A stretch of DNA of 64,000 nt from an uncultured Gammaproteobacteria bacterium. Lineage in GTDB: Bacteria; Patescibacteriota; Patescibacteriia; UBA10025; JAHIVO01. The DNA lies in assembly GCA_964415025.1 (NCBI GenBank), contig CAYPXF010000001.1, forward strand, positions 9,390 through 73,389. The letters run 5' to 3'. A program made the translations under genes and the position numbers. Positions 2,351-35,713 of this stretch are shown one piece after another; positions within the stretch are counted from its first letter, which is position 1, and every line of letters starts with the position of its first letter. A model generated the notes under the pieces. That model saw only the letters and a list, made by a program, of their open reading frames with translations, was not told where the DNA came from and did no database searches.

Positions 2351-2355
2351 TAACT

Positions 2356-3438: not shown

Positions 3439-4718
3439 AAAAAATTCTCATAGTTAGTTATTACTTTCCTCCGATTGGCTCAAGCGGTACAGTTAGGATA
3501 TCTAATTTTGTCAAATATTTACATAAATACGATTGGACATGCCACGTATTAACCGTAAAAAATATTTTTCATCATGCAATAGATGATACATATATACACG
3601 ATGTGGAAAAAGCATCACAGGTTCACAGAACTTTTCATATCGAACCAAGGTCTTTCTATCGTCAATCTCATGATTATTCCTTAAATATTAAACCCTCAAG
3701 GATAAAAAGGAATATCATTAAATTTTTTCGTTTCCTAATAAAATTATTTTTAGTTCCGGATGAAATAATTCTATGGTCACCATTTGCAATAATTAAAGGG
3801 ATTTATATTATTTATAAATATAATATTGACATTATTTTTTCCAGTTCACCGCCACCAACCGTACATATTATCGCATATTTTCTAAAAATATTTACTGGTA
3901 AAAAATTAGTTGTTGATTTTAGAGATGAATGGATAAATGACCCATTTAGCTCAATGCCAACAAGTGTACATCGCCGGATTAATTTATATTTAGAAAATCG
4001 TATACTGCAAAAAGCTGATGCTATAGTGGCTGTTACTCCAACAATATTTGAAGAAATGAATACACAATATCATCATAAATTCCGTACTATTACAAATGGA
4101 TACGATCCAGAAGATTTTCAGATCGGTCCCCATGCATCCGATCCCACAAAGAAGCTAACTTTTTATTATCCTGGTACATTTTATAAACATAGAACACCTT
4201 TTTATTTCTTGCAAGCTTTGCTATTATTATTAAAAGACCAAAAGATTAACAAAGATGAAATTTCAGTAATCTTCCAAGGTAATATTTCGCCAGATACATA
4301 CAATCAGTATATTCTTAATAATCATGAATTACTAGAAATTATAAAAATTAGACCGTATGCTGACCACCCTACGGTTATTAAGAATATGATCTCAGCTGAT
4401 ATTTTACTTTTAGTTATCAGCACACAGAGCGGGTTAGGTTCTCTGTCTGGTAAAATTTTCGAATATATCGCCACTGGAAAACCTATTTTAGGGCTTGTTC
4501 CCGCAAATGGTGCTGCTGCCTCTTTGATTAGGAAAACACAAACAGGCATTGTGGTTTCTCCAGAAAATATTTCCGATATATATAATAGTATTTATGAATT
4601 GTATAAAAGGTGGAACAAAAGTAGCTTACAAATTTATCCACATAAACCATTAATTAAAAAATATTCGAGAGAATCTCAGACAAAATTATTAATACGTGTT
4701 TTTCAAAGCCATATATGA
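3435..4718 (+). CDS. Glycosyltransferase family 1 (GT4-like)
   Basis: 427 aa. Starts MKKILIVSYYFPPIGSSGTVR, the typical GT4 N-terminal glycine-rich loop. Its start overlaps the upstream gene by 4 bp. Confidence 0.6.
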   Translation: MKKILIVSYYFPPIGSSGTVRISNFVKYLHKYDWTCHVLTVKNIFHHAIDDTYIHDVEKASQVHRTFHIEPRSFYRQSHDYSLNIKPSRIKRNIIKFFRFLIKLFLVPDEIILWSPFAIIKGIYIIYKYNIDIIFSSSPPPTVHIIAYFLKIFTGKKLVVDFRDEWINDPFSSMPTSVHRRINLYLENRILQKADAIVAVTPTIFEEMNTQYHHKFRTITNGYDPEDFQIGPHASDPTKKLTFYYPGTFYKHRTPFYFLQALLLLLKDQKINKDEISVIFQGNISPDTYNQYILNNHELLEIIKIRPYADHPTVIKNMISADILLLVISTQSGLGSLSGKIFEYIATGKPILGLVPANGAAASLIRKTQTGIVVSPENISDIYNSIYELYKRWNKSSLQIYPHKPLIKKYSRESQTKLLIRVFQSHI

Positions 4719-5725
4719 CGACCACTCCACACATTGGGATTATAGTATTAAATTGGAATGGTATTGATAACACCCGTCGCTGTCTTACATCCTTACAAAA
4801 AATCACTTACTCCAACTATTCTATATTTCTTGTTGACAATGGATCTACAATTAATGAATCGGATGTCTTAAAAAAGGAGTATCGGGAGATAATAGCCATT
4901 CGAACTAAAAATAATTTAGGCTTCTCTGGTGGAAATAACATTGGTATAAAATATGCACTATATGATTCCGATAATTATTGCGATTATATTCTAATTTTGA
5001 ACAATGATACAGTAGTTGAAAATAACTTTCTTTCTATCATGGTTAGAACTGCAATTCAAGACAACTCTGTCGGTATGGTAAGTCCAACCATGTTATCTAT
5101 GAATAATCATAATACTATTGATAATATGGGATTATGCCTCACCCTATCTGGTATTCCATTTAACAGAAAAAAGAATAAAAGAATTTTATTATGCCCTTCT
5201 GGCGGCGCGGCTTTGTATTCACGTCAAATGCTAAAAGATATATGCCTCGACGGTGACTATTTTGATTCCACTTTTTTTGCTTATGCTGAAGATTATGACA
5301 TAGGAATGAGAGCACTCCAAGCTGGCTACAAACCTGCACATGCGAATAACGCCATTATATATCATAAGGGTTCTGCATCAACTGGGTTAATGAGTGATTT
5401 TGCAATCTACCATACCTATCGAAATTTATTGCTAGTTATAGTTAAAGACTGGCCTTTCCTACTACTTGTTATCAATGCCCCCTGGATAATATTGATGCAA
5501 ATATGTTTAATCTTCCTCCATAGTAAACGCGGAACTATTCATATTCTACTTAATGCATACCGAGATTTTTTCAAATACATTCCACAATACATAAAAATGA
5601 GGAACATTATTCGTTCCCATAAACAGATAAGTTCTATTGTATTGCTTCGATATTTTGAAAAACGTGTAGTCCTACTGGAATATATACGAAATGCGATCTA
5701 TACTAACGGACAGTCTCAGGATTAA
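4715..5725 (+). CDS. Glycosyltransferase family 2
   Basis: GIIVLNWNGIDNTRRCLTSL...FLVDNGSTINES is the GT2 signature. There is an overlapping start. Confidence 0.75.
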   Translation: MTTTPHIGIIVLNWNGIDNTRRCLTSLQKITYSNYSIFLVDNGSTINESDVLKKEYREIIAIRTKNNLGFSGGNNIGIKYALYDSDNYCDYILILNNDTVVENNFLSIMVRTAIQDNSVGMVSPTMLSMNNHNTIDNMGLCLTLSGIPFNRKKNKRILLCPSGGAALYSRQMLKDICLDGDYFDSTFFAYAEDYDIGMRALQAGYKPAHANNAIIYHKGSASTGLMSDFAIYHTYRNLLLVIVKDWPFLLLVINAPWIILMQICLIFLHSKRGTIHILLNAYRDFFKYIPQYIKMRNIIRSHKQISSIVLLRYFEKRVVLLEYIRNAIYTNGQSQD

Positions 5726-7979
5726 ATTCAAATATATATATATCATCAATTTTTTTATATGTGCCCATTAATTCTATCTGTTTCTTGAGTGTATAGTCAC
5801 TAATCCATCTCTCCTCGGTCACAAAATAACATTTATCAGTCTTCGTAATATCGAGGGCTTTTTGTAAATCTATTTTTTTTGGATCTCGAAACAAATTTTG
5901 CTGAATTTCAACAAGCGCAGGTTGACTAAATTCTTCACCAATAGTAAATCCGCCCCCTATTATTTTTTTTGCTGATATGCTCTCTAATGCTAATAGTGGC
6001 CAAGTATCACTGATAACACAATATCTAGTTTCATCCTTTATCCTTTTATAGATATACTCCATTGCTTTCAATTCTGAAGCAGAAACCATCCGCAGTACTG
6101 GACCTGAAACATAATTAAAAAGTAATATAATTGAGATCATGATTGCTAAGCTAGATACAATAATCTTTTTATTATTTGCAAGCAAATAAATATTATAAAC
6201 TCCAAATACAACTAAGGGCAGTAAAAAAAGATATAATAGCAAGTCAATTCTGCTAGATAATGGCGCTGGACCATTAATAATATACCGGCTTCCGATATAC
6301 AACACTAGAAAAAAAGACATGACAAATATTAATATAATATTTCTGAATATTTTCGCTATTTTTAAATAAACTATTCCACTGATTATTAATACTAATAAAA
6401 ATAAGTTAGCAATAAATGATGTAGTAATTGATTTTATTGGATACCAATGCATCAGCTGTGGTATATTGTTTAAATTATAAAAGAATGTACCTGATGCAGC
6501 TATAGAACCAAACTGTGTTATACCAAATATATTAAGTATCCATCTGCCGAGTGACCGAGGTGTTTCCCAACTTAATAGACTAGCAGTGTCAAAAGCTGAG
6601 CTAAGATTAAAAATATTTGCATAATATATATCCAAACTTATAATTATTGTGCTTATTGTTAATGATCCTACTGCGATAATTATACAATGATAAATCTTTT
6701 TGCTTAGTTTTATAGTTGTTACCTTTTTTACTGCCTTGTAAAGTACAATAATGCTAAGTAAAAGAACCCATATAACCAAGGCTATGATATAATTTAAATA
6801 CAACATCAATGTAAGAATACCTATGAATACGTAACCCTTTTTTGTAGGCACCTTACTTACATCTAATAATACCAACGCTGCAAATATAAATAAAAGATGT
6901 CCAAATGAGTATGGCACGGTAATAGCCCCATACACTTGTAGAACCCAAAATATTGTACTGGAAAATGATAAAAGTAGAGGTATAATTTTACTATGTGGAC
7001 ATACTATTTTACCAATTTTGTATAATAATATCGGTGTGAATAATGACCATAATAAAAATACCAGTACTAAATCAATCCAAAATATATCAATCGCGGCTAT
7101 CTTACTAATAATTACAGTTATCGCCCACTGGTTTGCGTATGATGTTTTATTACCTACCAAGAAGACTGAAGGTATTTTAACCTGACCAAATTCTTTATAT
7201 GAAATAGTATCATCGAGAAAACTTGGCGATACTACATTTCCTTCAGCAATATATCTCTCGGTAGCTATATGCCTCCATTTATCACCTCCGTATCCAACTT
7301 CGTATATAATTGGTAAGTAACTATGGATAAGTACTGAAAATAAAATAATTATAATGAGAATTACAGTACTTTTTAATTTAGTAAATATTAAATATAATAT
7401 TATAAAACTTGATAATAATATCACTACTAGGTATAAATTTGGAATTACTTCCCACGGTGCCATAATATAATTACTCGTGCGAGCTCCATATAGTAATAAA
7501 AAACCAATAATAAATAATAAGGGCAAGCATATTATATATATCCTTGGTACATTTAATAAATTTATTTCTTCGTAATTGTTATTTATTTCAGTACGGCTTT
7601 TATTATATATGCCTAGTAGCCAATTAGCAGCAGATATTAATACAGATACTATGAGTAATATTATAAAAATTACAACATCGGATAATTTTAAAAAGACAAT
7701 AAAAAATGCGCCTAAAAAAGCGATCGAATATATATAGAATAAAGTACTTAATGCATTATTAAATTGACCTTTAACAAAATTAAAATTACTAAATATACCA
7801 CCAAGCCATAAAATACAAATTATTGAAAATAAAAGAAATAGCACAATACCAATGGCTGATATTTGGTATGTGGTTAAATTTACATAAATGCCAATACTAA
7901 AGAGAATATTTATTAGCGTAAATATTCCATATTTATTAACACGAACAGTATCTGCTAACTGAATAAGTAATTGTTTCAT
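5703..7979 (-). CDS. Large polytopic membrane protein with a soluble C-terminal domain. It may be a GT-C type glycosyltransferase or a polymerase.
   Basis: 758 aa with about 18 hydrophobic helices followed by a ~150-aa hydrophilic C-terminus. It sits in the polysaccharide locus. No diagnostic motif was recognised. Confidence 0.45.
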   Translation of the reverse strand: MKQLLIQLADTVRVNKYGIFTLINILFSIGIYVNLTTYQISAIGIVLFLLFSIICILWLGGIFSNFNFVKGQFNNALSTLFYIYSIAFLGAFFIVFLKLSDVVIFIILLIVSVLISAANWLLGIYNKSRTEINNNYEEINLLNVPRIYIICLPLLFIIGFLLLYGARTSNYIMAPWEVIPNLYLVVILLSSFIILYLIFTKLKSTVILIIIILFSVLIHSYLPIIYEVGYGGDKWRHIATERYIAEGNVVSPSFLDDTISYKEFGQVKIPSVFLVGNKTSYANQWAITVIISKIAAIDIFWIDLVLVFLLWSLFTPILLYKIGKIVCPHSKIIPLLLSFSSTIFWVLQVYGAITVPYSFGHLLFIFAALVLLDVSKVPTKKGYVFIGILTLMLYLNYIIALVIWVLLLSIIVLYKAVKKVTTIKLSKKIYHCIIIAVGSLTISTIIISLDIYYANIFNLSSAFDTASLLSWETPRSLGRWILNIFGITQFGSIAASGTFFYNLNNIPQLMHWYPIKSITTSFIANLFLLVLIISGIVYLKIAKIFRNIILIFVMSFFLVLYIGSRYIINGPAPLSSRIDLLLYLFLLPLVVFGVYNIYLLANNKKIIVSSLAIMISIILLFNYVSGPVLRMVSASELKAMEYIYKRIKDETRYCVISDTWPLLALESISAKKIIGGGFTIGEEFSQPALVEIQQNLFRDPKKIDLQKALDITKTDKCYFVTEERWISDYTLKKQIELMGTYKKIDDIYIFEFNPETVR

Positions 7980-9121
7980 GTTGCGTTATAAATTGCTACT
8001 AATTTATCTACTATAACATCCCATGAGAAGTGTTTCACTACTTTCTTTTTACCATTAGCTCCATATTCTTTTTTTAATTCTTCATTGTTTATAATAATGC
8101 GTATCTTTTTTGCAAGTTCTCTATCATTCCCTACCCGAAACGTAAGACCGTCCTTTCCTGTATTAATCAAGGTTCGAACCCCAGGCAAATCAGAAGTTAT
8201 AACCGGCGTACCGCACGCCATTGCCTCCAGCGTTACCAGGCCATATGCTTCTGTTTTATCAGTTGAAGGTAGTACTAATACATCAGCAACGTTATAAATA
8301 TCTATCAGTGTATCATTATCTACTTTATTTAAAAAGAATACCCTCGACTTAAGTGCGAGTTTATTGGATTGTTCCTCATATTCTGACTGTAAATTTCCTT
8401 TTCCAACAATAATTAATTTTGCTTCTGGCAACTCTTTCATGGCATTGAGCAATACGTCCAATCCTTTGAAATAGTGCGCTTCGTCAAGGCCGCCGACAAA
8501 AAGAACTATCTTTTTTTTATCTTTTCTGATTTTCTCAACTATTTCTCCTGTTATTTCTTTTTCTCTGAACTTATTTATATCTACACCATTAGCAAGGGGT
8601 ATAAATTTGTTCTCATGAGCACTATAGTATTTATATATGTCAGAATGTTCAAAATAATCCCAGGTTGATACAAGTACTTTATTCGCCCGCATAACAATTA
8701 GTTTGGTAAATACTGTCTTATATATCCAGAATAAATATCGTACCCATTTTCTACCCACTAAGTCCATTTGGTATTGTAATATAATCCTTACTTTTTTATC
8801 TAACAATAAATATAAATATAGAAACTCTAATCCAATAAACGGATAATGTATATGTACAATATCGTATTCTTTTATTTCTTTGCTAATATTAGGTAACAGG
8901 GAGGCATTCCCAAAGGTCAACAATGATTTTTTTTTAATTACTCGATATTTTGCGGGGTGATACATGTCCTGTATCTCATTTTTATATGACGGTATAATGA
9001 CATCAACATTCCACCCTCTTTTCGCCAGCCCCTCTACCTGATTTTTACATACATTACCAATCCCTCCCTTATACGGAGGGAATGTCGATACCACATGTGC
9101 TACTCGTAGTTTTTGTTTCAT
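7976..9121 (-). CDS. Glycosyltransferase family 1 (GT4)
   Basis: KVAHVVSTFPPYKGGIGNVCKNQVEGLAKRGWNVDVI is the N-terminal GT4 motif, and the C-terminus has a VLPSTDKTEAYGLVTLEAMACGTPVITSD block. Confidence 0.8.
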   Translation of the reverse strand: MKQKLRVAHVVSTFPPYKGGIGNVCKNQVEGLAKRGWNVDVIIPSYKNEIQDMYHPAKYRVIKKKSLLTFGNASLLPNISKEIKEYDIVHIHYPFIGLEFLYLYLLLDKKVRIILQYQMDLVGRKWVRYLFWIYKTVFTKLIVMRANKVLVSTWDYFEHSDIYKYYSAHENKFIPLANGVDINKFREKEITGEIVEKIRKDKKKIVLFVGGLDEAHYFKGLDVLLNAMKELPEAKLIIVGKGNLQSEYEEQSNKLALKSRVFFLNKVDNDTLIDIYNVADVLVLPSTDKTEAYGLVTLEAMACGTPVITSDLPGVRTLINTGKDGLTFRVGNDRELAKKIRIIINNEELKKEYGANGKKKVVKHFSWDVIVDKLVAIYNAT

Positions 9122-9123
9122 TA

Positions 9124-10098
9124 TTATTTAATCTGCTCTCTCCAGTAATTCAATGTGTCTACGAGCGTTGTGTTCATATAGTCAATTTCTGGTTTCCATC
9201 CTGTAGTATCACAAAACTTAGAGTTATCACCAAGCAATACCGGCACATCAGAGGGTCGCATTCTTTTCGGATCTTGTATCACTTTTATCCCCTTATGATT
9301 AGAGTGATTAATGAGTGCCTGCAGCACATCCTTTATTTTGTAATCCTGACCAGAGCAAATATTATATACCTCTCCGGGTTCGCATTTTTCGGTGGCGATC
9401 CAGTAAGCCTTTACGATATCACGCACATCAGTAAAATCACGTCGTGCATCTAGGTTGCCGACCTGAATAACGGGTTCTTTTCTACCACGCTCTATTTCTG
9501 CAACTTGTTTTGCAAAATTACTATCCACAAAAACATCTCCCCGTCTTGGGCCAGAATGATTAAATGTTCTTGTCCGTATTATTCGCACGCCATAACTCAT
9601 GTAATATTGATAGCCCATGTAGTCTTGTGCAACTTTAGATACGGCATACGGCGACATCGGGCGTAGCGGGTTTGATTCTCGTATAGGGATTTCATCAGGC
9701 TTCACCAGGCCATATTCTTCTGAAGAGCACGCAATTTGTATGACGGGGTTATAGTCATCGCTTATTAATTTTCTGACCGCCTCAAAAACATTACACTGTC
9801 CTGTAATATTTATTTCAAGCGTTTCGCTAGGAGATTCCCATGAGGTCGGGACAAAACTTTGCGCCGCCAGATGAAATATCTTATCTGGCTTAATTGTTTC
9901 AATAATACTCGATACATTATGGGCATCTTTGATATCACATTCATAAAAAGATATTGATGACTCAATGTCCTGGATATTTGCCATATTGCTTCGCCAGCGT
10001 TTGATGCCAAATATTTCAACATCCGGATGATGCTCTAAGATGTACTCGGCTAGATGACTGCCTACAAATCCGGTTATCCCGGTAATTAACACTTTCAT
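9124..10098 (-). CDS. NAD-dependent sugar-nucleotide epimerase/dehydratase. It resembles GDP-mannose 4,6-dehydratase or GDP-6-deoxy-4-keto-mannose reductase.
   Basis: Starts MKVLITGITGFVGSHLAEYIL with a Rossmann GxxGxxG loop, and has a YxxxK-type SDR core at YAVSKVAQDY. Confidence 0.7.
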   Translation of the reverse strand: MKVLITGITGFVGSHLAEYILEHHPDVEIFGIKRWRSNMANIQDIESSISFYECDIKDAHNVSSIIETIKPDKIFHLAAQSFVPTSWESPSETLEINITGQCNVFEAVRKLISDDYNPVIQIACSSEEYGLVKPDEIPIRESNPLRPMSPYAVSKVAQDYMGYQYYMSYGVRIIRTRTFNHSGPRRGDVFVDSNFAKQVAEIERGRKEPVIQVGNLDARRDFTDVRDIVKAYWIATEKCEPGEVYNICSGQDYKIKDVLQALINHSNHKGIKVIQDPKRMRPSDVPVLLGDNSKFCDTTGWKPEIDYMNTTLVDTLNYWREQIK

Positions 10099-20804: not shown

Positions 20805-22625
20805 CTAACGCTTTAGCACTGCTAGAAACGCTTCCTGGGGGATATCTACCCGTCCGTGTGAACGCATGCGTTTTTTCCCCTTTTTCTGTTTTTCCAGGAG
20901 CTTGCGCTTTCGGGTGACATCGCCGCCATACAGATTTGCCGTGACATCTTTTCGGAGCGGCGGGATTCTGCCGGACGCTATTATTTTCGCGCCAATAGCT
21001 GCCTGGATTTTCAGCTCAAACTGCTGCCGTGGCAGCGCCTCTTTTAGCGTGTCGACGATTTTTCTGGCCACGACGTACGCTTCATCAGTATAAACGATGG
21101 TCGACAGCGCCTCAACTGTTTCTTCTGCAACCAATATGTCTAGCCGCGCTACGTTACATGTGCGGTACCCGATTACTTCATAATTCATAGAAGCAAATCC
21201 AGCACTCACACTCTTCAGTGTATCATAAAAATCAACGATAATGCTAGCTAACGGCATCTCGTAGTGCAGGACGACCTTGTGCTCGTCCAAATACTCGGTG
21301 GTTCGGTATTCGCCTCGCTTTTCCTGTACCAGCGTCATAGCTTCACCGATATAATCACTCGGCGTGATAATGTCAATCCGCGCCCATGGTTCTTCGATCG
21401 ACTCAATATACGACGGTTTTGGCAGCTGGTGGGGGCTGGTGATATGCAGAGTGGCAGCCGCGCCGTGCTTTTTATCTTTGCGCTCTTGCGCCTTTTGGCC
21501 AGCTTCATTAAGCGTAACCTGATAGCCTACAGATGGCGCGGTGATAATCAGAGCCAAATCATATTCACGCTTCAGCCGTTCCTGGAAAATTTCCAAATGC
21601 AATACGCCGAGAAAACCGCACCGAAAACCAAAACCCAGCGCCTCTGACTGTTCTGGTTCATAGAAAAGGGAGGCGTCATTAAGCGAGATTTTTTCTATAG
21701 CGTCACGCAAGTCTGGATAATCATCTCCTTCTTTGCAGTACACGCCGGCAAATACCATGGGTTTGAGCGTTTTGTATCCGGACAATGGCTTCGCGGCTGT
21801 TTTTTTTGCGCTGGTTATCGTATCACCGACGCGGCAATAATTGACGTCTTTGAGACCGGTCACAACATACCCGATATCGCCAGCGCTTATCTCTTCGCTG
21901 GCAATAAGCTGTGGGTGAAAATTTCCGACCTCAAGCACATCTGTCTGCTTTTGTGTCGCCATGAATTCAATCCGCTCCTGACTCTGTAATGATCCGGACA
22001 CGACACGTACATAGGCAATAACGCCGCGATATTCATCATATACTGAATCAAAAATAAGCATACGCAGCGGGTCCTGCTCCTGACCAGCTGGCGGTTGGAC
22101 TTGTTTAATAACTGCGTCCAGGACCTCTGTGACGTGCTCTCCTGTTTTTGCCGATACGGCAATAATATCCTCACGGGCACAGCCAATAAGCGACATTATG
22201 TCCTGTGCTGTTTTATCGACGTTTGCGTTTGGTAGGTCAATTTTATTGATAACAGGAATAATGGCGAGGTCTTGGTCAAGGGCTAAGTATAAATTTGCTA
22301 ATGTCTGCGCCTCAATTCCTTGCGTTGCGTCTATGAGCAATACCGCCCCCTCAACTGCGGCGAGCGAACGAGACACTTCGTATGAAAAATCCACGTGGCC
22401 CGGCGTGTCAATAAGGTTGAGCTCATAATCCCTGTACCTCATCTTAACCGGCTGAAGCTTGATAGTTATGCCTCGTTCGCGCTCGAGCTCCATCTGATCG
22501 AGTACCTGCTCCTTCATCGAGCGTTTAGCTACTGTTTTCGTTACTTCAATAAACCGGTCGGCCAATGTCGACTTTCCGTGGTCAATATGCGCAATAATAC
22601 AAAAATTTCTAATATGATTATCCAT
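20805..22625 (-). CDS. lepA: Elongation factor 4 (translational GTPase LepA)
   Basis: N-terminus NFCIIAHIDHGKSTLADR is the G1 motif. 606 aa with the EF4-specific C-terminal domain. Confidence 0.95.
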   Translation of the reverse strand: MDNHIRNFCIIAHIDHGKSTLADRFIEVTKTVAKRSMKEQVLDQMELERERGITIKLQPVKMRYRDYELNLIDTPGHVDFSYEVSRSLAAVEGAVLLIDATQGIEAQTLANLYLALDQDLAIIPVINKIDLPNANVDKTAQDIMSLIGCAREDIIAVSAKTGEHVTEVLDAVIKQVQPPAGQEQDPLRMLIFDSVYDEYRGVIAYVRVVSGSLQSQERIEFMATQKQTDVLEVGNFHPQLIASEEISAGDIGYVVTGLKDVNYCRVGDTITSAKKTAAKPLSGYKTLKPMVFAGVYCKEGDDYPDLRDAIEKISLNDASLFYEPEQSEALGFGFRCGFLGVLHLEIFQERLKREYDLALIITAPSVGYQVTLNEAGQKAQERKDKKHGAAATLHITSPHQLPKPSYIESIEEPWARIDIITPSDYIGEAMTLVQEKRGEYRTTEYLDEHKVVLHYEMPLASIIVDFYDTLKSVSAGFASMNYEVIGYRTCNVARLDILVAEETVEALSTIVYTDEAYVVARKIVDTLKEALPRQQFELKIQAAIGAKIIASGRIPPLRKDVTANLYGGDVTRKRKLLEKQKKGKKRMRSHGRVDIPQEAFLAVLKR

Positions 22626-22791: not shown

Positions 22792-24417
22792 TTAATTAAA
22801 ATGGTTATGATGTGTGAACAATAGCCGTCGAGCCTTTAGTACCCATTTATAGATTATAGAAACTTCATCGCAACGGAATATCAAAGCCAGTATAAGGTAA
22901 CAAATAATACCTACTGCCCCGGCGACCGTCCCCTGGATGAGGATACCGACAAAGCTTTGCATGTTCACGCCAAGCGCTAAAAAGTATTTTGCCGCTATGA
23001 CAACAGCTCCCATGATACCAGATACGAGGACTATCTTAGCGGTTGATATGACAATCTTCCGGTCATCCAGGTATCCTATTTTTTTGCGTAAGAATACCAG
23101 CAGCAAACTCATGTTAAACAAACTAGAAATGGAAAATGCCAAGGCCAGGCCAGTCACGCCGATCAATCGCGAAAAAATAACAGCACCGGCTACATTAATA
23201 AGCACGCTGCCGATAGCGATTTTTACCGGCGTCTTAGTATCGTGCCACGCATAAAACGAGCGCGCGAGCAACGGTATGACGCTTTGGGCAAACAGCGATA
23301 TAGAAAACATACCGAGTGTTTGTGCGGTTAAAAATGTATCCTCCCAGTCAAATGCGCCGGTACCCAGGATTACACGCACGATTTGCGCACGTAACAGCAG
23401 GATAAGGACAGAAACAGGTATGATAATAAATAATATTCGGCGGAAGCTTTTCGAAAAATGCGCAATAAACGCCTCGGTGCGTTTAGACGCATATGCCTCG
23501 CTTAAAAAAGGAAATGACGCTACTGCCACTGACACACCAAACACACTGATAGGAAAACTCTGCAAATTATTTGCTAGTGTAAAAACAGCGACCGACCCGG
23601 CAGCCAGCGTCGAACCGATGATGACGCTGATTAGCTGGTCAATCTGGTTTACCGCCAAACCAAATGTCCGTGGCAACATCAATCTGCCAATAGTTCGAAC
23701 CCCCTCGTGCTTATAATCGCGCACCGGGCGGTAACAATACCCTAAACGTATGACACCTGGCAGCTGTATGACTAAGTGAAACAATGAACCCAACACTACG
23801 CCATAGGCCAATCCATAAAGACCAAAAAATGGCACCAACAGTACAATTCCGATAATAATGCCGACATTATACACTACTGGCGCGAAAGCGAAGTTAATAT
23901 ACCGCTTAAACGAATTCAGGATGCTGGTCATGATATTACTAATACCGAAGAACAAGATACTGATCATCATAATTCTAGTCATGGTTATGGTCACTGCTTG
24001 TTTTTCCGCGGAAAAACCAGGCGCGATAAGCGGTACAATTACCGGAGCAAAAATAAAAAACACAATACCAAATAAAACCAGTCCAATCATCAGCAGATTG
24101 AGCATACTGTTGGCCAAATACCACACGTCATTCTTTTTCGATGGATCTTGCTTTGCTTTTTGTATGTATTCTATAAATACCGGAATAAATGCGGCTGATA
24201 AGGCGCCCAAAACCAACACGTTAAATACCAAATCCGGTATACGAAAGGCTGCGTAATATATATCCAGCTCATCACCCGCGCCAAATCGGTATGCCAGCAA
24301 GCGATCACGCATTAATCCAAGCAAACGGCTCGTCACAGAAGCCGCGGCTATAATAATTGCACCACCGGTTAAGGTGGTGGTGAGTTTTGACCATACTTTT
24401 CGCCACATAATGCGCAT
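22792..24417 (-). CDS. murJ: Lipid II flippase MurJ (MviN)
   Basis: 541 aa with 14 TM segments. The N-terminal region LAYRFGAGDELDIYYAAFRIPDLVFNVLVLGALSAAFIPVF is characteristic of MurJ. Confidence 0.9.
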   Translation of the reverse strand: MRIMWRKVWSKLTTTLTGGAIIIAAASVTSRLLGLMRDRLLAYRFGAGDELDIYYAAFRIPDLVFNVLVLGALSAAFIPVFIEYIQKAKQDPSKKNDVWYLANSMLNLLMIGLVLFGIVFFIFAPVIVPLIAPGFSAEKQAVTITMTRIMMISILFFGISNIMTSILNSFKRYINFAFAPVVYNVGIIIGIVLLVPFFGLYGLAYGVVLGSLFHLVIQLPGVIRLGYCYRPVRDYKHEGVRTIGRLMLPRTFGLAVNQIDQLISVIIGSTLAAGSVAVFTLANNLQSFPISVFGVSVAVASFPFLSEAYASKRTEAFIAHFSKSFRRILFIIIPVSVLILLLRAQIVRVILGTGAFDWEDTFLTAQTLGMFSISLFAQSVIPLLARSFYAWHDTKTPVKIAIGSVLINVAGAVIFSRLIGVTGLALAFSISSLFNMSLLLVFLRKKIGYLDDRKIVISTAKIVLVSGIMGAVVIAAKYFLALGVNMQSFVGILIQGTVAGAVGIICYLILALIFRCDEVSIIYKWVLKARRLLFTHHNHFN

Positions 24418-24844
24418 AGTATAACAACTTATGCTACTTTTAGCAACCCTTTATAAATAATAATGTGCGTCGTAAAACGGCACACATAGTGTGCCACTCT
24501 GTTGCATGGCGAAGAGTCCCGAAAAAAACCGCGAGACCTCCTCCTCACAAAACCTCCCCTCCTGTTTCTGCTGCAACCTCCCCTCCGGAATACCCGTGCT
24601 CTATATAACCCATAAACGCTCTTCCCCTCCTCATACGAGGATGGACCACGAGAGGCAGCGCTTTAGTAATCCCCGCAGAGTGGGTAGGTGAGAAACAGGA
24701 GGAGAGGTGGTATCAAATAATGCCGATCCTTGACTTAATATAAGGCAAGGCATACCTCTATTTTGCGTAAAGCTTCGCCTTCGGCCGTGAGCTCGAGCCG
24801 GACGGAAAACTGCTATTCATAAAAAAGGGGGTTTCCGAAGTACT

Positions 24845-24981
24845 AAAAAAGCTGCCGGCTAGAGACGAAGGGTTATACAAGCTAGTTAAGTAAACGACGT
24901 TCTCTGGCGAGAACGCGAGGAGAGAGATTTGTCTACTCCCCTAGCTTGATCTCCGCCACTGTCTTAGCCAGCAGCTTTTTT
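24845..24981. ncRNA. Candidate structured small RNA. It could be 6S-like, another regulatory sRNA, or a large bidirectional terminator-like hairpin.
   Basis: A 23-bp helix (24845-24867 with 24958-24981, including G-U pairs), then a 10/11-nt internal bubble, an 8-bp helix (caagctag/ctagcttg) and an apical 7-bp hairpin cgttctc-tggc-gagaacg. It is flanked by A6 and T6. No ORF lies within 400 bp. Confidence 0.3.
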
Positions 24982-25299
24982 ATGCCCATAGCTGATGAGC
25001 ACAGCGTATTGTAAATAATATTTTATTATTTGTCAATACATGACACCATTAGAAAAATGTGAGGAGGTTGACGGTTTATGAACCAAGCAACTTTCTTGCT
25101 ATTTACTGCACAATGGTGACATAATTTGGGCATATGTACAGCATACCGCCCGATTCAGGAATACTTAATTGCGTACTAACAGCGACCAACAACAGCACGG
25201 CTGCAATTGACATACATCCATAGAAAAAATGAAAATGCGGTATAATTTATAATGTACTGTCTCTCTCTTTTTCAAACACGAATAGTCTTCTTGTCTGGA

Positions 25300-25342
25300 A
25301 AAGAGAGGCGAGCTGTGGATCGAACACAGTCTCGCCTATGAC
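25300..25342 (-). terminator. Rho-independent terminator of the lipoprotein gene
   Basis: Minus-strand hairpin GGCGAGACUGUG-UUCGAUC-CACAG(U)CUCGCC followed by UCUCUUUUCC. Confidence 0.6.
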
Positions 25343-25357
25343 AATCAAATATTAATC

Positions 25358-25888
25358 CTATTTCCAATGGCCAAACTGCTTGCCGATATAGGTATAATAC
25401 CTAATAACATTCGGCTCGACAGTCCATACGGCCTTGTGTAAATCAGCAGTCTTGCCGATTTCATTGAGCATCTGGCGTGGAAATTGGTAATAATAGTCCA
25501 ATCTCACCCATGTATCCACCGGTACCATATCTCCGTCATAAATCGGCTCATATGATTCAGTAACCGGCAATAAATTGCCTGACTGGCGGGGTAAAATGAT
25601 TACCCGTGCCCAACGGTTAATGCCAAAAAATGCATAACCGTATGTTGAATCTGATCCGGTATAAAATACCTGGAGCTTATCCCCACCAGCCATGCTTGTG
25701 TCTGCATATTCGAACCACTGAAGTGTCCGATATGTAGTTTCGGGTACATCCGTTTCGATAGTATCCGCATCGGTCAGTACCGGTACTACTGTTTCTGGTT
25801 GTGCGGGGGTAGCTTTTTCAACGACTTCATCGCCGCCGCACCCAGCAAATACTAGACAAACAATGAATAATACAACAAATAATCTCAT
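25358..25888 (-). CDS. Lipoprotein of unknown function
   Basis: Signal peptide ending in a lipobox, LVFAGCGGD. The mature protein is 176 aa. Confidence 0.6.
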   Translation of the reverse strand: MRLFVVLFIVCLVFAGCGGDEVVEKATPAQPETVVPVLTDADTIETDVPETTYRTLQWFEYADTSMAGGDKLQVFYTGSDSTYGYAFFGINRWARVIILPRQSGNLLPVTESYEPIYDGDMVPVDTWVRLDYYYQFPRQMLNEIGKTADLHKAVWTVEPNVIRYYTYIGKQFGHWK

Positions 25889-26053: not shown

Positions 26054-26533
26054 CTACATAAACCATGGCGCGGCAAAGATTATAATACTCACAATCCAAG
26101 CCACACCGGCTATAGCGTAAACACCGATTGCCAGCGGCATACCGACGCGAAATCCGTAGCAAGCGAGCCACGATCCTCCCAGTGTGCATGCAATTGTCCC
26201 GGCGATTACAGTGAAGATAAACATTACAAAGCGGCGAGCGATTTCAATGCTTAGAAATGAGTCAGGGTTTAACGCCGAACTCATTCCTATCCATTCAGAC
26301 GGAGGTGGTAAGAGAAAGTGAGCCATGAGAAAGAAAGAAGCGACTCCCATGGCTGCCTTCCAGTCCTCATCCCAGTCCTCCCAGCTGGATTTCCACCAGT
26401 TGCTGGTGTATAGCAAGGTAAAAAATCCTACTCCGATCGGCGCATAAAAAACAAAAGAGTTTTCTATCATTGCGCCTATGGTGCTGACACCGATCGTGGT
26501 CAGCACAACAATAAGTCTGGCTATCTTTGACAT
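26054..26533 (-). CDS. Integral membrane protein of unknown function
   Basis: 159 aa with 4 hydrophobic helices and a Trp/Asp-rich loop (WWKSSWEDWDEDWK). Confidence 0.5.
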   Translation of the reverse strand: MSKIARLIVVLTTIGVSTIGAMIENSFVFYAPIGVGFFTLLYTSNWWKSSWEDWDEDWKAAMGVASFFLMAHFLLPPPSEWIGMSSALNPDSFLSIEIARRFVMFIFTVIAGTIACTLGGSWLACYGFRVGMPLAIGVYAIAGVAWIVSIIIFAAPWFM

Positions 26534-26838
26534 TTTGTCTCCTTTATCTTGTAAAGATCATTATTTGCCTATCACCGGTATGAAGGCGAGATAACCTGCC
26601 TTAGTCCTATGCTACATAGCACGGCAGATTCAGCAGTGCTACCGCATCATGCGCAGTATATACCGCGCATGTGCCGCATATCACGGCCGCTCCTCTCTCC
26701 CCCATGTCCAGTGACAGCTAACTCCTTACGCAGCAGTTGACCGGATAACCAGTCCACCGCTGTGGAAGGGGGCAAAAAGAATGATTCTTTTTGCCTGGAG
26801 GATGATTGGTGTGTAAAGTGCGGATAACGGGTAAAATT

Positions 26839-26882
26839 TGGTGAGAGGCGAAAGGAGTTGAACCTTCCGCGGCCTTATTATT
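26839..26882 (-). ncRNA. tRNA-like 3' terminus (T-arm + 7-nt acceptor strand + ACCA), possibly the 3' end of a tmRNA (ssrA)
   Basis: The minus strand reads GGAAGG-UUCAACU-CCUUUC-GCCUCUC-A-CCA. The T-loop UUCAACU is identical to that of the E. coli tmRNA T-arm, and the surrounding CGCGG...UUCAACUCC...ACCA resembles the E. coli ssrA 3' end. There are no ORFs in the surrounding 830 bp. A TTGACA -35 box lies on the minus strand at 27321-27326, about 480 nt upstream. Confidence 0.3.
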
Positions 26883-27367
26883 TCAGCCGGCGCACTCCCT
26901 CGCAGCACAGCCACTCGCGAAAGCACATCCCTGCCCTCTCAATATTTCCAATGACCAGGAGGTTAGTGGCCGGCCTTTGCTGCATAGCAGCGGCCGTGCC
27001 AGACGTCTGAACCGATATGTTCTAGTTCGCACCAGAACATAACAAGTTCATAATGACATCTGTTACTAATCCCCCCTTATCACTGGAAATATTGTATCCT
27101 GCATACAAAAAACGAGCACTCTATGGGGAGACTCGTTTTTTGCTTGAATTATTGGTTGTTCGGTACCATACTATACCGCGCATACGCACAATGCACTATT
27201 GTATTCACGCGCTTTACAATTTGGGTCTCTCTCCCCATTTGTTCCCCGGCGCATCGGAGAACTATATATTTGATTGTAAAAAACAGTGTAACAGATAAGC
27301 ATATACCCAAACCAAAAAACTGTCAAGGCCAGCTATCCACAGCCTGACTTTATTTACCTAATATTAG

Positions 27368-29689
27368 CTATTTCTGGAGCAATATTTTATAATTAACATC
27401 CTGTACAATATCCCTTACCAGCTCCACAACATGTCCTCGTGAGTGCATGCCTGGCTGCATCCACACCAGCTCATGCTCATCATCATATGCCACCGTACTG
27501 GCTAAACTATTATTAACCATGCCTGGCTGCTGCTGAACATAGAGTGAATACACATCAGTAGGATTAAGCCAGCCGCCTAGGTCCAGGGCAAACGGCAAAC
27601 GATAGGTAAATGTCATCTCACCGACCTCGCCGGGATCAATCGACAGCCAGTTGCCGAATACTGTTTTATTAAACTCGGTGGTAATCCGTGTGTGCGAACG
27701 CTCGTCTACGATAGGTTCTGATACGATCTGTTCTAAACCAGGGTCTGGCCTGGCGTCGTCATCAGGCAGTCTATATCGGAATGAAGGAATATCTGTCTGC
27801 CCTGAAACCGACACCAGTTCACTGCCGGCTGGCACATAGAGCCTGATATAGGCGACGTTTGCCTGTCCTTCCCATGTGTCGAGCGCATTGCCGGTATGAC
27901 GTCTGATAATCGAAACTGTATTTATGATTGAGCCGTCAGCCTGTATGTCAGCGCGGTGCTTTACCAGCTGTTCAATAGCCGTGTCAGTCTTGCCGCCGGC
28001 AATATTCGTGACAACTGGCATGAGATAGTCGCCGTCAGTATGAACTAATGAACCGTCTCCGACCAGCTGCCGCATAGCTTCCTGTGCCTGTTCGTCAGTA
28101 AAATACATCATAATATCACGCCGCTGCATACTGGCATACAGCGCGTCGATCATGCCGATAATGTGCTGCGGATCAGCGCTAAATATGTTTTGCATGAGCA
28201 GCGGCATAAGGTCTGAGATAAACTGTTTTGGTTTGTTTTCTTCACGGTCATAGCCTATTTCAGCCCAGTACTGCGCCTGGTAGACGAAGTTTTCTTCAGT
28301 AACCGTAACATCGTAATCAGGCATGGATATGGGTCCGACTATTTCTAATAAATGCTCTACCACCGTCGGCGTCATAGACACCACCCCATCGACTGTGGTG
28401 CGTCCGGCCCGTTCATAAAACCACATTAATTTCTGTGCGCTGGTCGGAAAATCGGGAAACCAATTGCTATCCTGGATATTCCAGTGCGGATTAACCAGCC
28501 AAAGCGGTTTCGGAGCGATAATCTTATCATTCAGCTGGCCGGCAATGTCGTACACGCCACCGCCGGGTACCTCGATATTTTTTATGATACCCTCATCAAT
28601 ATCGAGTAAGGCGATGGATCCGATAAATCCGCCTGTCGGACGCAGTTCCCGATTGTTTTGAAAAATAAACAAATAACGCTGCGGCGATTCATGCCCGAGC
28701 ACGGTTAGTAATACGTCACTAAATGATATAAACGACCCAAAGCCCTGCTCAAGCACGGGTAAGAGCTCCTGAATACCAGCGATTTGATCACGATGTGACG
28801 CTGGTATATCTTCTATACGGACAGAGGCTAACTTATCAGCTGCCTGCTGTATATGCTGATGCGCTGGCTGTAAATCATCGCGCATCACTATCAAATACTG
28901 TGTCAGAGATGAGGCGCTAGGACTATTAACCACTTGATTGCTGCTTATTTCCTTACTCTGCTCAATCCCCCTAGCAATAAGCGATCCGGCCTGGGCAATA
29001 TGCCGCCCTGCTTCGAGTAACTGATCCGCTGATCGAACCTGTCCAGGTATAAGCGCGGTCACATCGGTAATTATCCCGCCGGCGGTATCGAGCTCAAGCT
29101 GTGCCTGGATAAAATTATCAGAGGCTCGATCAAACGACGCGCCGGCCTGGCCAAAATCAGCGCCAATAATATAATCGCCCGCCTGCTGTAAATTTTCATA
29201 AGCTTGCGACGACACCCCCAGCACTTCCCCTTTGGCCGATTGGGCGCGGTAGTAAAAAGCCAGCGCATAAAACGGCATGATGAGCAGAAGACACGAGGTC
29301 ACAAAAACAACCATCTTTTTTTGCCATCCTTTTGTCAGCGTAAAAATGCTCCAGTTAATTTTTTCCCGTGGCGGCGTCTCAATAAGCCCGGCAGGCCTGT
29401 GTTTAATTTTTTTTGTTTTTGGCTGCTTGGTACGAATCGGCTGGTAGCTTTTGTTTTCTGATACCAGCACGGTCTCGCGTGATTCCCGTGAATAAAACTT
29501 TGATTTTTGTCGCTGTTTGCGCCAATTTTGCCAGGTGCTTGCAATACGCTGCCAAAACGATACCCGCTGGGTAATGCTTTGCTTTTCAGGTACTATAGCC
29601 GCCTTTTTTTTCCGCAAATCAATAACATTTTCCTGCGGTATTCGGCTGGAATCATGGTGCTGCCTGTTAGAGCGTGGATTATATATCAT
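27368..29689 (-). CDS. Large membrane-anchored extracytoplasmic protein, DUF4012-like
   Basis: 773 aa. It has a ~120-aa K/R/Q-rich N-terminal tail, one TM helix, then a large domain containing the RPTGGFIGS motif that I associate with DUF4012. It sits beside the second glycosyltransferase locus. Confidence 0.45.
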   Translation of the reverse strand: MIYNPRSNRQHHDSSRIPQENVIDLRKKKAAIVPEKQSITQRVSFWQRIASTWQNWRKQRQKSKFYSRESRETVLVSENKSYQPIRTKQPKTKKIKHRPAGLIETPPREKINWSIFTLTKGWQKKMVVFVTSCLLLIMPFYALAFYYRAQSAKGEVLGVSSQAYENLQQAGDYIIGADFGQAGASFDRASDNFIQAQLELDTAGGIITDVTALIPGQVRSADQLLEAGRHIAQAGSLIARGIEQSKEISSNQVVNSPSASSLTQYLIVMRDDLQPAHQHIQQAADKLASVRIEDIPASHRDQIAGIQELLPVLEQGFGSFISFSDVLLTVLGHESPQRYLFIFQNNRELRPTGGFIGSIALLDIDEGIIKNIEVPGGGVYDIAGQLNDKIIAPKPLWLVNPHWNIQDSNWFPDFPTSAQKLMWFYERAGRTTVDGVVSMTPTVVEHLLEIVGPISMPDYDVTVTEENFVYQAQYWAEIGYDREENKPKQFISDLMPLLMQNIFSADPQHIIGMIDALYASMQRRDIMMYFTDEQAQEAMRQLVGDGSLVHTDGDYLMPVVTNIAGGKTDTAIEQLVKHRADIQADGSIINTVSIIRRHTGNALDTWEGQANVAYIRLYVPAGSELVSVSGQTDIPSFRYRLPDDDARPDPGLEQIVSEPIVDERSHTRITTEFNKTVFGNWLSIDPGEVGEMTFTYRLPFALDLGGWLNPTDVYSLYVQQQPGMVNNSLASTVAYDDEHELVWMQPGMHSRGHVVELVRDIVQDVNYKILLQK

Positions 29690-33686: not shown

Positions 33687-35135
33687 CTAGGCAGCTGTCT
33701 TTGCGCTCAAAACAACCCACGGTGTCTTGAGCAGTATTTGGAAATCAAGTTTAGGTGACCAATTCTCTATGTAGTATATGTCAAGTTTGGCCTCATCTTC
33801 GAAGTGTAAATCGGAACGGCCGGACACCTGTGCCAACCCCGTCATGCCAGGCTTAATAGTTAAGAGTGTCTGATGCCAGCGCTCATACTTAGATACTTCC
33901 TCTGGCTCATGCGGTCGGGGGCCAACTAAACTCATCTCGCCCTTGAGCACATTGATGAGTTGGGGAAATTCATCGAGGCTTGTTTTCCGCAGTATTCTCC
34001 CGACCCGAGTGATGCGTGGGTCGTCCTTTATCTTGAATAAGGGGCCGTCAGATCGTTCATTATAACGTAATAAATCTTTTTTTAATTGCTGTGCGTTTCT
34101 AACCATTGATCTGAACTTGTACAGCGTAAACCGTTGTCCCCGTTCACCGACACGCTCCAGCCGGGCAAACACGCCACCTTGCGAATCGACTACAATGCAC
34201 ACCGCGACAATCATAAATACTGGTGACAGCATGATGAGCAGTAACAACGACAAGGTAAAGTCAAGTCCGCGTTTAAATATCCTGCCCCACCCGTCTAGCT
34301 TCGTACGCTGGACCTCGATAATCGGGATGCCCGCTATCATATTAATTCTAATATGGGTCGGCTGAACCTCAAATAAATCAGTCGCGTATTTGAAGGTAAT
34401 GTGGTAATCAGCGCAGGCGTTGCGTATGGCGATGACCTGCTCTTTTGGCAGGTGGGCATCGGTCTGAATTATTTCGTCAATTGTTTCTGTATTAATTTTT
34501 TTTATGAACTCATGCTGCGCAGTTTCGTCAAACTGATCATAGTGATCAATAATTTTATATCCCTGTGAGGGATATTTATGGATGTGCTTAATGATATCTT
34601 CAGTGGTCTTGTTGCTGCCAATGATAACTACATTATGCAATCCTGTGCCCTTTTTCAGCAAAGCTCGCTGAATGCCGCGTACGATTAAACGGCCAATGCT
34701 GACCATGAATATAGAAAATATCCAGCCAAAAATGACGATAAACCTGGATGAAAACAATTCACGCTGAAAAAATATTATAATAATGACCAAAGCAATCGCC
34801 GCGGTACAAGCGACAAATACCGTGGTAATCTCATCGATCAGCCGTCGCGTGCTTTTTATGGCATAGAGGCCGGACAAGGCAAATATTATTATAAATACAA
34901 ACGGAATAATAAATAGTACCTGCATATAGTCACGCAAGACTATCTCCGTAACAATCGGCTTAATGTCCGTAAAAAAGGGCACAAAGCGCAATTGGTAAGC
35001 AAAAATACCCGCACAAATAACCATGAAGTAATCAACGGGTATTAATATCGCACTGAAAATTAATTCAGACTTCTTCATATAATAGAGGTGGTAAGCTCCA
35101 GCAGGATCATAAGCCGAATTCTGTCCCGCCCGCAC
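33687..35135 (-). CDS. Polyprenyl glycosylphosphotransferase (WbaP/WcaJ-type priming sugar transferase)
   Basis: 5 N-terminal TM helices and a C-terminal bacterial sugar-transferase domain: KRGLDFTLSLLLLIMLSPVFMIVAVCI...YKFRSM...DEFPQLINVLKGEMSLVGPRP. Confidence 0.85.
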   Translation of the reverse strand: MRAGQNSAYDPAGAYHLYYMKKSELIFSAILIPVDYFMVICAGIFAYQLRFVPFFTDIKPIVTEIVLRDYMQVLFIIPFVFIIIFALSGLYAIKSTRRLIDEITTVFVACTAAIALVIIIIFFQRELFSSRFIVIFGWIFSIFMVSIGRLIVRGIQRALLKKGTGLHNVVIIGSNKTTEDIIKHIHKYPSQGYKIIDHYDQFDETAQHEFIKKINTETIDEIIQTDAHLPKEQVIAIRNACADYHITFKYATDLFEVQPTHIRINMIAGIPIIEVQRTKLDGWGRIFKRGLDFTLSLLLLIMLSPVFMIVAVCIVVDSQGGVFARLERVGERGQRFTLYKFRSMVRNAQQLKKDLLRYNERSDGPLFKIKDDPRITRVGRILRKTSLDEFPQLINVLKGEMSLVGPRPHEPEEVSKYERWHQTLLTIKPGMTGLAQVSGRSDLHFEDEAKLDIYYIENWSPKLDFQILLKTPWVVLSAKTAA

Positions 35136-35713
35136 CGTCAGACGGTGAAGGGGTAATGGTTATCTATCTTGTCCTGATATTGCTATCAGGATCATGCAAC
35201 CAACCCACCCCCACGCCTTTTATGTACGCCTTTATTACAGTTTTTTCTGTGAATGATGATGGCATCAAGCAAAACAGCAGTTTATATGCTCTATAATAGT
35301 ACACAAAAGGTGTGGGGGTCTACTTGGTCTTGCACCGGATAGGGTTTTTCACGCCAGCATGTCACCATACTGACCTGTGAGCTCTTACCTCACCGCTTTT
35401 CACCTTTACCCCCACACTGATACTTTTATTACTAGTATAATCGATTACTTGAACAAGAGTATCAGTGTGGGGGCAGTATCGTCTCTGTGACACTTTCCCT
35501 AGAATTCTGCTTTTTAAAAGGCTATAGCGCTCTTAAAAAATACGTTACTTCTGGTCGCATTTCGCGACTATCCTTGGCATCTTTGTCATAAAACAAAGAA
35601 GGGTGTTCGGACTTTCCTCTCCCCACACCAATACTTTCATTTATCGCTACTATCGGGCGTTGAAACGATAATATTGGTGTGGGGAGCAACCATCTCACCT
35701 CCTGGAGCTTACT
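35087..35713 (-). ncRNA. rnpB: RNase P RNA (bacterial type A-like), unusually long (~625 nt) because of extended P3 and extra inserted helices
   Basis: Conserved blocks read on the minus strand. AGAGGAAAGUCCG (plus 35608-35620) is the P4 5' strand. GGUAAAGGUGAAAAGCGGUGAGGUAAGAGCUCACAG (plus 35375-35410) is the P10-P12 block. GUGAAAAACCCUAUCCGGUGCAAGACCAAGUAG (plus 35320-35352) is the P13 block. ACAGAAUUCGGCUUAU (plus 35109-35124) is the P4 3' strand, with a compensatory change that preserves P4 (AAG-U-CCGAA pairs with UUCGGCUU). The closing helix GUAAGCUCCAG/CUGGAGCUUAC lies at 35703-35713 and 35087-35097. Confidence 0.8.

Follow-up and report, generated by a model that had tools for sequence, protein, structure and literature searches.

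What is encoded in the 940 bp between murJ and the next gene upstream, at positions 24418–25357 of the window, as we call the whole 64-kb stretch of contig CAYPXF010000001.1 analysed here? A sequence-only reading had described this gap as a desert of open reading frames (ORFs) holding two long-range paired structures, the second of which (structure 2), a 137-nt hairpin, was likened to 6S RNA. The closest relatives of the MurJ protein of the window all come from metagenome-assembled genomes (MAGs) of Patescibacteria, several of them Candidatus Kerfeldbacteria; no database record was identical to this MurJ. It is most likely (probability, roughly 0.9) that the 137-nt hairpin makes up the body of a clade-restricted and previously undescribed small RNA (sRNA) gene of ~160 nt, here designated sRNA-1. 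Its function is best read, with the mechanism inferred, as that of a riboregulator which acts by base pairing in the manner of RoxS/RosA. The evidence consists of the anatomy, conservation, covariation, strand, synteny, and complementarity of the element, from which we infer its transcription, its interaction with another RNA, and the regulatory outcome.

The 137-nt element is present at 24845–24981 as had been claimed, flanked by A6 (24845–24850) and T6 (24976–24981), and on folding it is far more stable than shuffled sequence on both strands (minimum free energy, −61.7 kcal/mol on the plus and −68.6 kcal/mol on the minus strand; z-scores, −6.7 and −6.9, respectively; 0 of 200 shuffles as good). 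The reported 10/11-nt internal loop and 8-bp helix are also found, the loop being partly paired in the rod of the window, but the closing helix has 21–22 bp with one bulge rather than 23 bp. Three features past the 8-bp helix had been missed: a sub-apical helix of 8 bp, a one-sided bulge of 14 nt in the 5′-strand, and an apical hairpin of 8 bp. A promoter and a small 5′ hairpin located just upstream on the minus strand had likewise gone unnoticed. The promoter (25008–25036, minus strand) is of the sigma-70 type and matches the consensus at 11 of 12 positions (TTGACA, 17-nt spacer, TACAAT). The predicted transcript of ~160 nt (24843–25003, minus strand) would start at ~25002 and end in the U6 tract. 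Its first ~23 nt (24981–25003) form the 5′-terminal hairpin P1 (UGUGCUCAU-CAGCU-AUGGGCAUA). The rod at 24845–24981 is composed of the closing stem P2, which is bounded by A6 and U6 and doubles as an intrinsic terminator, the middle helices, the one-sided 14-nt bulge (AAAUCUCUCUCCUC, 24917–24930, including CUCUCUCC at 24919–24926), and the apical hairpin P5 (GCGUUCUC-GCCA-GAGAACGU, 24897–24916), all on the minus strand.

Homologues of this unit, taken as promoter, P1, rod, and U-tract upstream of murJ, were identified in four loci (L001–L004) by a profile search plus reading of the sequences. A scan of metagenomes with a pattern of the conserved parts gave 12 matches, of which 7 were chance matches in coding sequence and 5 were true, two of the latter repeating the L003 and L004 contigs and three representing new loci (L024, L026, and L028). 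Two of these, L024 and L026, were thus found by DNA pattern independently of murJ, and also have murJ downstream. Nine more loci were taken via MurJ homologues of 61–75% identity; the covariance model R1 matches eight of them, and in the ninth (L045) sRNA-1 was recognised by inspection. Altogether, 16 distinct sequences from Kerfeldbacteria-like Patescibacteria share the promoter, 5′ hairpin, rod, and U-tract. The promoter, whose −35/17/−10 layout is equidistant from the 5′ hairpin in the homologues too, and the U-tract after the stem are conserved in position in all 16, sequence signals characteristic of an independent transcription unit. The distribution is sharply bounded: sRNA-1 is present in all 13 loci with a MurJ identity of ≥61% and in none of the 15 with ≤47%, these 15 loci of more distant Patescibacteria giving no match to R1, and the three distant loci inspected (L011, L012, and L016) have coding sequence upstream of murJ. 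All 15 loci of known context have sRNA-1 immediately before murJ and co-oriented with it, while the gene on its other side varies. Within the 64-kb window structure 2 occurs in one copy only, and scans of viral contigs for the sRNA-1 pattern and for the structure 1 arm returned one chance match each.

The homologues share a fold composed of P1, a P2 of 17–22 bp, the middle helices, the sub-apical helix, a 13–16-nt bulge in the 5′-strand, and P5, which stacks directly on the 3′-strand. The P1 position holds a hairpin in all of them with differing sequences (e.g., CUCAU/AUGGG in the window and CUAAC/GUUGG in L004), and the sequence of P5 differs in every lineage with the hairpin always retained. 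In L002 the RNA is shortened and its terminal loop holds the motif, and an extra inserted hairpin is seen in L034 and L045. In the 16-sequence alignment, 85% of the cells are paired, as compared with 37–50% in slid-partner controls, 18 pairs have changed on both sides, and the covariation score was reached by 0 of 500 shuffles. Pairing is highest in P2 (93.8% of cells). These compensatory changes, together with 32 G·U versus 2 A·C cells in the closing stem (76 versus 20 overall), bear out the claim that the element is an RNA helix and not a DNA palindrome. The covariance model matches the window at 24843–25004 on the minus strand with 148 bits, and its antisense strand with 39.8 bits; on account of this difference and the G·U bias, the strand of sRNA-1 is that of murJ, i.e., the minus strand of the window.

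The proposed central bubble did not survive the comparison with relatives, in which the 10/11 loop gives way to covarying pairs (GGAG/CUCC in several homologues, CAGAG/CUCUG in L036, and GAAAAUC/GAUUUUC in L041). The only conserved unpaired part is the 13–16-nt bulge of the 5′-strand, with 0–1 nt opposite and the consensus AA(A/U)CUCUCUCCUC(A/G). Within it, CUCUCUCC is invariant in 16 of 16 sequences (extended form, CUCUCUCC(UC)). The predicted probability of being unpaired is 0.97–1.0 for the bulge in 13 of the 16 homologues versus ~0.3 across the whole RNA, and 0.44 in the window itself, so that the motif constitutes a conserved and accessible single-stranded seed. With Rfam 15 at the gathering threshold, the 64 kb gave no match to 6S, signal recognition particle (SRP), or any other family for sRNA-1, and at E ≤ 10 only chance-level matches (e.g., potC, mir-3747, and BsrC) were obtained in 24300–25500 and in seven homologous loci. 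Because these searches came back empty, sRNA-1 is not a recognisable 6S, SRP, transfer-messenger RNA (tmRNA), RNase P, or other described RNA.

A candidate partner emerged on searching the fetched loci for the complement of the bulge, which is exactly complementary to GAGGAGAGAG, or (UUU)GAGGAGAGAG(U) in its wider form. Eight exact copies of GAGGAGAGAG were counted across the fetched loci against ~0.25 expected, always on the transcribed strand. Six of the eight lie in a homologous promoter-to-terminator unit upstream of sRNA-1, here called sRNA-2, and the other two, both in L026, belong to further GA-motif elements between sRNA-2 and sRNA-1; L046 and L047 contribute two additional exact copies, both in sRNA-2. 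The exact motif is found 1–4 kb upstream of sRNA-1 in L001, L004/L043, L026, L036, and L042, and also in L046 and L047, and variant forms are seen in the window (GGGGAGAGAG, 27227–27236) and in L002 (UGGAGAGAGA). In the window, sRNA-2 (27106–27295, minus strand; promoter, ~27298–27326) is ~2 kb from sRNA-1 and fills a second ORF desert (26534–27367) downstream of a DUF4012 gene, which it also follows in L042, L046, and L047. It is present in at least nine genomes, and its region has no Rfam match beyond chance level. Its layout comprises a promoter of the form CTTGACA-17-TAnnnT, GUUA conserved at the 5′ end, the motif AAACUCUUUGAGGAGAGAGU (GA motif of the window, GGGGAGAGAGAC at 27225–27236, minus strand), a variable middle, the sequence AAUAAYUCAAGCAAAAAACG, and a terminator hairpin, CU-rich in its 5′ arm and loop, within 27106–27295 on the minus strand.

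As side observations on this unit, elements starting AUGG(R)GGAGAGAG(C/G)GG are situated between sRNA-2 and sRNA-1 (window, 26693–26705; L026, 2980 and 2386, minus strand), carry the same GA motif, and are not conserved as coding sequence. DnaA-box-like sites (TGTGGATAA/TGTGCATAA) are located a few nt upstream of the −35 box of sRNA-2 in the window (27333–27341, minus strand), L001, L026, L042, L004, and L036, and upstream of that of sRNA-1 in L003, L004, and L043; they form no origin-like cluster in the window.

In an accessibility-corrected scan of all 12-mer pairs between sRNA-1 and sRNA-2 in nine genomes, the bulge and the GA motif made the top predicted interaction in all nine (totals, −6.1 to −12.1 kcal/mol), with the runner-up 3–12 kcal/mol weaker. 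Opening the sRNA-1 side costs 0–1.2 kcal/mol in eight genomes and 3.2 kcal/mol in L002. Full-length duplexfold of the two RNAs gave values no better than shuffles, a result that is uninformative because whole-molecule duplexes are forced in it. In cis, the GA motif has another possible partner in the 5′ arm and loop of the sRNA-2 terminator, a pairing of −10 to −22 kcal/mol that is about as strong as the terminator hairpin itself, and lineage-specific changes in the two segments match (AAUGGGGAGAG with GUCUCCCCAUA in the window; CUUUGAGGAGAGAG with CUCUCCCUCAAA in L001). By virtue of this cis pairing, sRNA-2 looks like a terminator/antiterminator switch, whose terminator arm the sRNA-1 bulge seems to copy with a better match.

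Based on these features, a base-pairing mechanism of sRNA-1 with sRNA-2 may be proposed tentatively, at somewhat less than even odds. The 5′ end of the transcript would fold at once into the short hairpin P1, and the remainder would form a ~55-bp rod, whose A6/U6-flanked closing stem would also serve as the intrinsic terminator and which would present a single unpaired segment, the bulge. Through this bulge, sRNA-1 would act in trans by pairing with GA-rich sequences, the prime candidate being the GA motif of sRNA-2. If the GA motif is the antiterminator strand of sRNA-2 through its cis pairing with the terminator arm, sRNA-1 could titrate that strand, since it is the better complement than the cis arm, and thereby shift the terminator/antiterminator balance; conversely, sRNA-2 might be a sponge for sRNA-1. 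A dedicated circuit, in which sRNA-1 mimics the terminator arm in trans, captures the GA antiterminator strand of the sRNA-2 attenuator, and so sets termination versus read-through into the small-gene island between DUF4012 and murJ, is speculative and, taken as a whole, unlikely. A role as a global mimic of the anti-Shine–Dalgarno (SD) sequence was considered and is unlikely, because the genes of the window are seldom preceded by SD-like sequences: at −20 to −4 of 55 ORF starts across the window, 5-mers of this type show no enrichment and A/T-rich ones rank top, a pattern suggesting that translation initiation in the window is mostly SD-independent or leaderless.

Several points weigh against base pairing with sRNA-2. 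The transcription, ends, and abundance of sRNA-1 are all read from DNA sequence. A trans-acting model leaves the strict linkage to murJ unexplained, and the scarcity of SD sequences also leaves few mRNA candidates for the bulge. The GA motif is partly sequestered in sRNA-2, with an opening cost of 6–9 kcal/mol. Both motifs are invariant and of low complexity, (CU)n and (GA)n, and therefore show no intermolecular covariation by which the pairing might be proved. The positions flanking the motifs pair in L001 and the window, but not in L004, L026, and L036, and in L002 both motifs are changed at their ends without compensation. The hybridisation energy of the sRNA-2 site in the window (−20.3 kcal/mol) is not the unique best, stronger sites being found inside the RNase P RNA (−21.6), at 5791–5820 (−21.0), and at 24521–24550 (−20.9). 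Finally, and less tellingly, sRNA-2 is not seen in L034, L039, L041, and L044, each with only 1.7–2.2 kb of sequence upstream of sRNA-1.

The alternative that survives best, and still an unlikely one, is that sRNA-1 is a protein-binding or scaffold RNA, in which the rod and the CU bulge dock a protein (a pyrimidine binder of the KH or S1 type, or a ribonuclease) and the GA complementarity is incidental. The closing stem AAAAAGCUGYCGGCUA/UAGCCGGCAGCUUUUU is conserved beyond the needs of pairing in most homologues, the rod architecture is kept through the insertions in L034 and L045, and the window holds more than one site complementary to the bulge, all of which speaks for such an RNA. No candidate protein, however, is genetically linked, the upstream neighbours varying between loci, and the complement of the bulge is itself invariant, belongs to another conserved RNA from the same island, and gives the top interaction in nine of nine genomes.

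The constant association with murJ speaks for another reading, in which the promoter, rod, and terminator act in cis as an insulator, a roadblock, or a leader with controlled read-through that tunes murJ transcription: synteny and co-orientation hold in all 15 loci, though the gene on the other side changes. We nevertheless regard this as quite unlikely, since murJ has a conserved promoter of its own 9 nt from the start codon, the spacer between sRNA-1 and the murJ promoter is hypervariable (170–430 nt) with further terminator-like hairpins of each lineage's own, and a role as insulator leaves the invariant unpaired 8–10-mer unexplained. The murJ promoter of the window (24418–24446, minus strand) consists of TTGCTA, a 17-nt spacer, and TATACT, and in seven aligned loci it takes the form TTGnnn-17-TATAAT with the −10 box ending exactly 9 nt before ATGTGG/ATGTTC. 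On the strength of this spacing in the seven loci, the true start of murJ is probably the ATG at 24406–24408, with translation beginning at 24408 and not 24417 and the mRNA being leaderless.

Between structure 1 and this promoter, a terminator-like hairpin (GGCACAC-UAU-GUGUGCC) is followed by the box GUUUUACGACGCAC (24465–24495, minus strand). The box, (G/A)UUUUACGAC(A/G)CAC, is common to the window, L001, L002, L024, and L039, stands ~20 nt upstream of the murJ −35, and in most of these loci follows a hairpin of lineage-dependent sequence; it may also be written (G/A)TTTTACGAC(A/G)CAC (window, 24465–24495, minus strand; L001, ~4920–4955; L002, ~4910–4950). Box and hairpin could be an insulating terminator or a binding site for a regulator. 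Other observations in the spacer are an insert in L024 (332–764, minus strand) with a GC-rich hairpin followed by U7, and lineage-specific structured inserts just 3′ of sRNA-1 in L003, L004, L028, L036, and L044, in several of which a CU-rich run comes after a hairpin AUGAGGAGA...UCUCCUCAU.

The first of the two structures of the sequence-only reading (structure 1, 24552–24708, minus strand) is a genuine inverted repeat, in which the CU-rich arm at 24691–24708 pairs with the GA-rich arm at 24552–24569 (18 nt, 17 of 18 complementary, 121 nt apart), and its one mismatch is C·A on the plus and U·G on the minus strand, as claimed. Its fold is moderately better than shuffles (z-scores, −2.3 on the minus and −3.35 on the plus strand), it is not repeated in the window, and its region has no Rfam match. 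The further claim that it is the murJ 5′ leader fails, because murJ is leaderless and has its own conserved promoter, which lies downstream of structure 1. The paired segments are also lacking at every homologous locus, including the closest (L024, 84% MurJ identity), an outcome that the sequence-only reading had itself named as fatal to its structures. Structure 1 is a window-specific, lineage-specific insert in the hypervariable spacer and not a conserved functional leader. It nonetheless shares the CU/GA theme, with CUCUCCUC in the 5′ arm, resembling the bulge, and four GA-rich blocks complementary to the bulge, and might be functional as a sponge or target for the bulge or as an SD-sequestering switch for a 39-aa GTG ORF (24429–24548). 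Its 3′ part is among the best matches to the bulge across the window (−20.9 kcal/mol), and AGGAGGGGAGG is placed 5 nt upstream of a GTG. Against such a function, which we consider improbable, stand the absence from all relatives, the modest z-score of the fold, small ORFs without conservation, and the finding of no promoter of its own.

The 6S interpretation of structure 2, according to which a divergent 6S-type RNA would bind the RNA polymerase holoenzyme as a mimic of an open promoter, is very improbable. It draws on the rod shape, the dense structure, the own promoter, and a roughly 6S-like size within the housekeeping-type 150–200-nt architecture of 6S RNA (RF00013 and related), and Rfam 6S models can miss divergent 6S RNAs. 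The 6S models gave no match at E ≤ 5 in the seven homologous loci, however, nor was any obtained even at E ≤ 10 in these and the window, and the idea founders on anatomy: what stays unpaired across the family is a one-sided bulge adjoining the apical hairpin, with next to nothing opposite, rather than a two-sided central bubble; an additional 5′ hairpin outside the closing stem also sets sRNA-1 apart. Structure 2 as a terminator (giant or bidirectional), as a selfish palindrome, or as a miniature inverted-repeat transposable element (MITE), in each case without an RNA function of its own, can be dismissed, for although the long palindrome is bordered by A6 and T6 and folds well as either strand, a conserved promoter 5–7 nt upstream is directed into the hairpin, both neighbours are co-directional with no convergent gene, the upstream ORF has a separate terminator-like hairpin 290 nt earlier (25297–25337), the element is single-copy in 64 kb, and the strand-asymmetric G·U pairs and invariant internal motif denote an RNA with a defined sense strand. 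The terminator of a protein-coding gene was likewise rejected in view of the own promoter and the lack of convergent units, and a MITE or repetitive extragenic palindromic (REP)-type repeat in view of structures 1 and 2 each being single-copy in the window.

The genes around 24418–25357 are on the minus strand throughout: lepA (20805–22625), murJ (22792–24417; MurJ Pfam E-value, 1.8e-95), a 176-aa lipoprotein-like ORF with a signal peptide and the lipobox LVFAGC (25358–25888), a 159-aa membrane ORF (26054–26533), and the DUF4012 gene (27368–29689). The gap itself has short ORFs only, in agreement with its description as an ORF desert, but the statement that it has no ORF of 60 aa or more is not quite accurate, as a 66-aa GTG ORF exists on the plus strand (24491–24691) within polypyrimidine sequence. 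It has no Pfam match, and the small ORFs (66, 41, 40, 39, and 22 aa) were rejected as an explanation of the region, none of them being conserved. The terminator-like hairpin of the 176-aa ORF on the minus strand (25297–25337), read from inverted repeats in the sequence, has the arms AGGCGAGACUGUG...CACAGCUCGCCU followed by CUCUUUUCC. The ~250 nt between this hairpin and the sRNA-1 promoter (25040–25296) have a homologue in none of the fetched loci and contain no convincing ORF, and two weak promoter-like sites are seen there on the plus strand. Elsewhere in the window, positions 1–10000 have a GC content of 28–38% as against 43–52% in the remainder and may be a horizontally acquired island. 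A match to the bacterial RNase P class A RNA at 35094–35705 (minus strand) extends over 612 nt for a model of 367 positions, and the RNA thus carries large insertions. ARAGORN identified no tRNA or tmRNA.

Regulatory RNAs of Patescibacteria, or Candidate Phyla Radiation (CPR) bacteria, are almost unexplored, and nothing on their sRNAs was found in the literature searched. sRNA-1 and sRNA-2 would thus be the first well-defined riboregulator candidates in this group. The new family delivers a covariance model, 16 members, a fixed synteny, and a testable partner, and may serve as an entry point to post-transcriptional control in uncultured organisms with tiny genomes and few SD sequences. The sRNA-1 family could enter RNA family databases and improve the annotation of MAGs, in which the start codon of murJ would also be corrected for this clade. 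If the circuit proposed above were true, it would be an attenuator with another small RNA as effector, and the first riboregulatory circuit described in the CPR.

Among known RNAs, bacterial SRP (4.5S) RNA resembles sRNA-1 as a long irregular hairpin of ~110–140 nt. sRNA-1, however, matches neither the small nor the large SRP models of Rfam and lacks the conserved domain IV motif and GNAR tetraloop; its apical and adjoining loops vary (GCCA, GAAA, UUAAU, and others), and an identity with SRP RNA fails on this variation of the apical region. sRNA-2 resembles transcription attenuators in its promoter, its U-tract, and a segment that can base-pair with the 5′ arm of the terminator further downstream, whereas it matches no known family and has no evident ligand, tRNA, or protein sensor, its proposed effector being a trans-acting RNA, sRNA-1. 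The closest parallel is provided by the C-rich sRNAs of Bacillus, RoxS and FsrA, which are bound by the G-rich sponge RosA (PMC8216469). RoxS/RsaE and FsrA of Firmicutes are likewise stand-alone genes with their own promoter, intrinsic terminator, and structured 5′ end, in which an unpaired pyrimidine-rich segment pairs with purine-rich sequences, as is predicted for sRNA-1. They show no similarity to it in sequence or covariance model, and homology to RsaE/RoxS (Rfam RF01820) was rejected; the analogy is mechanistic, the likeness lying in the mode of action and not in the family. RoxS and FsrA use several C-rich hairpin loops, whereas sRNA-1 has a single CU-rich motif in a one-sided bulge on a ~55-bp terminator rod, and its host is a patescibacterium with genes mostly without SD sequences. 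RosA, for its part, is comparable to sRNA-2 as a second stand-alone sRNA with a complementary G-rich region (PMC8216469), from which sRNA-2 is distinguished by its resemblance to a terminator/antiterminator switch.

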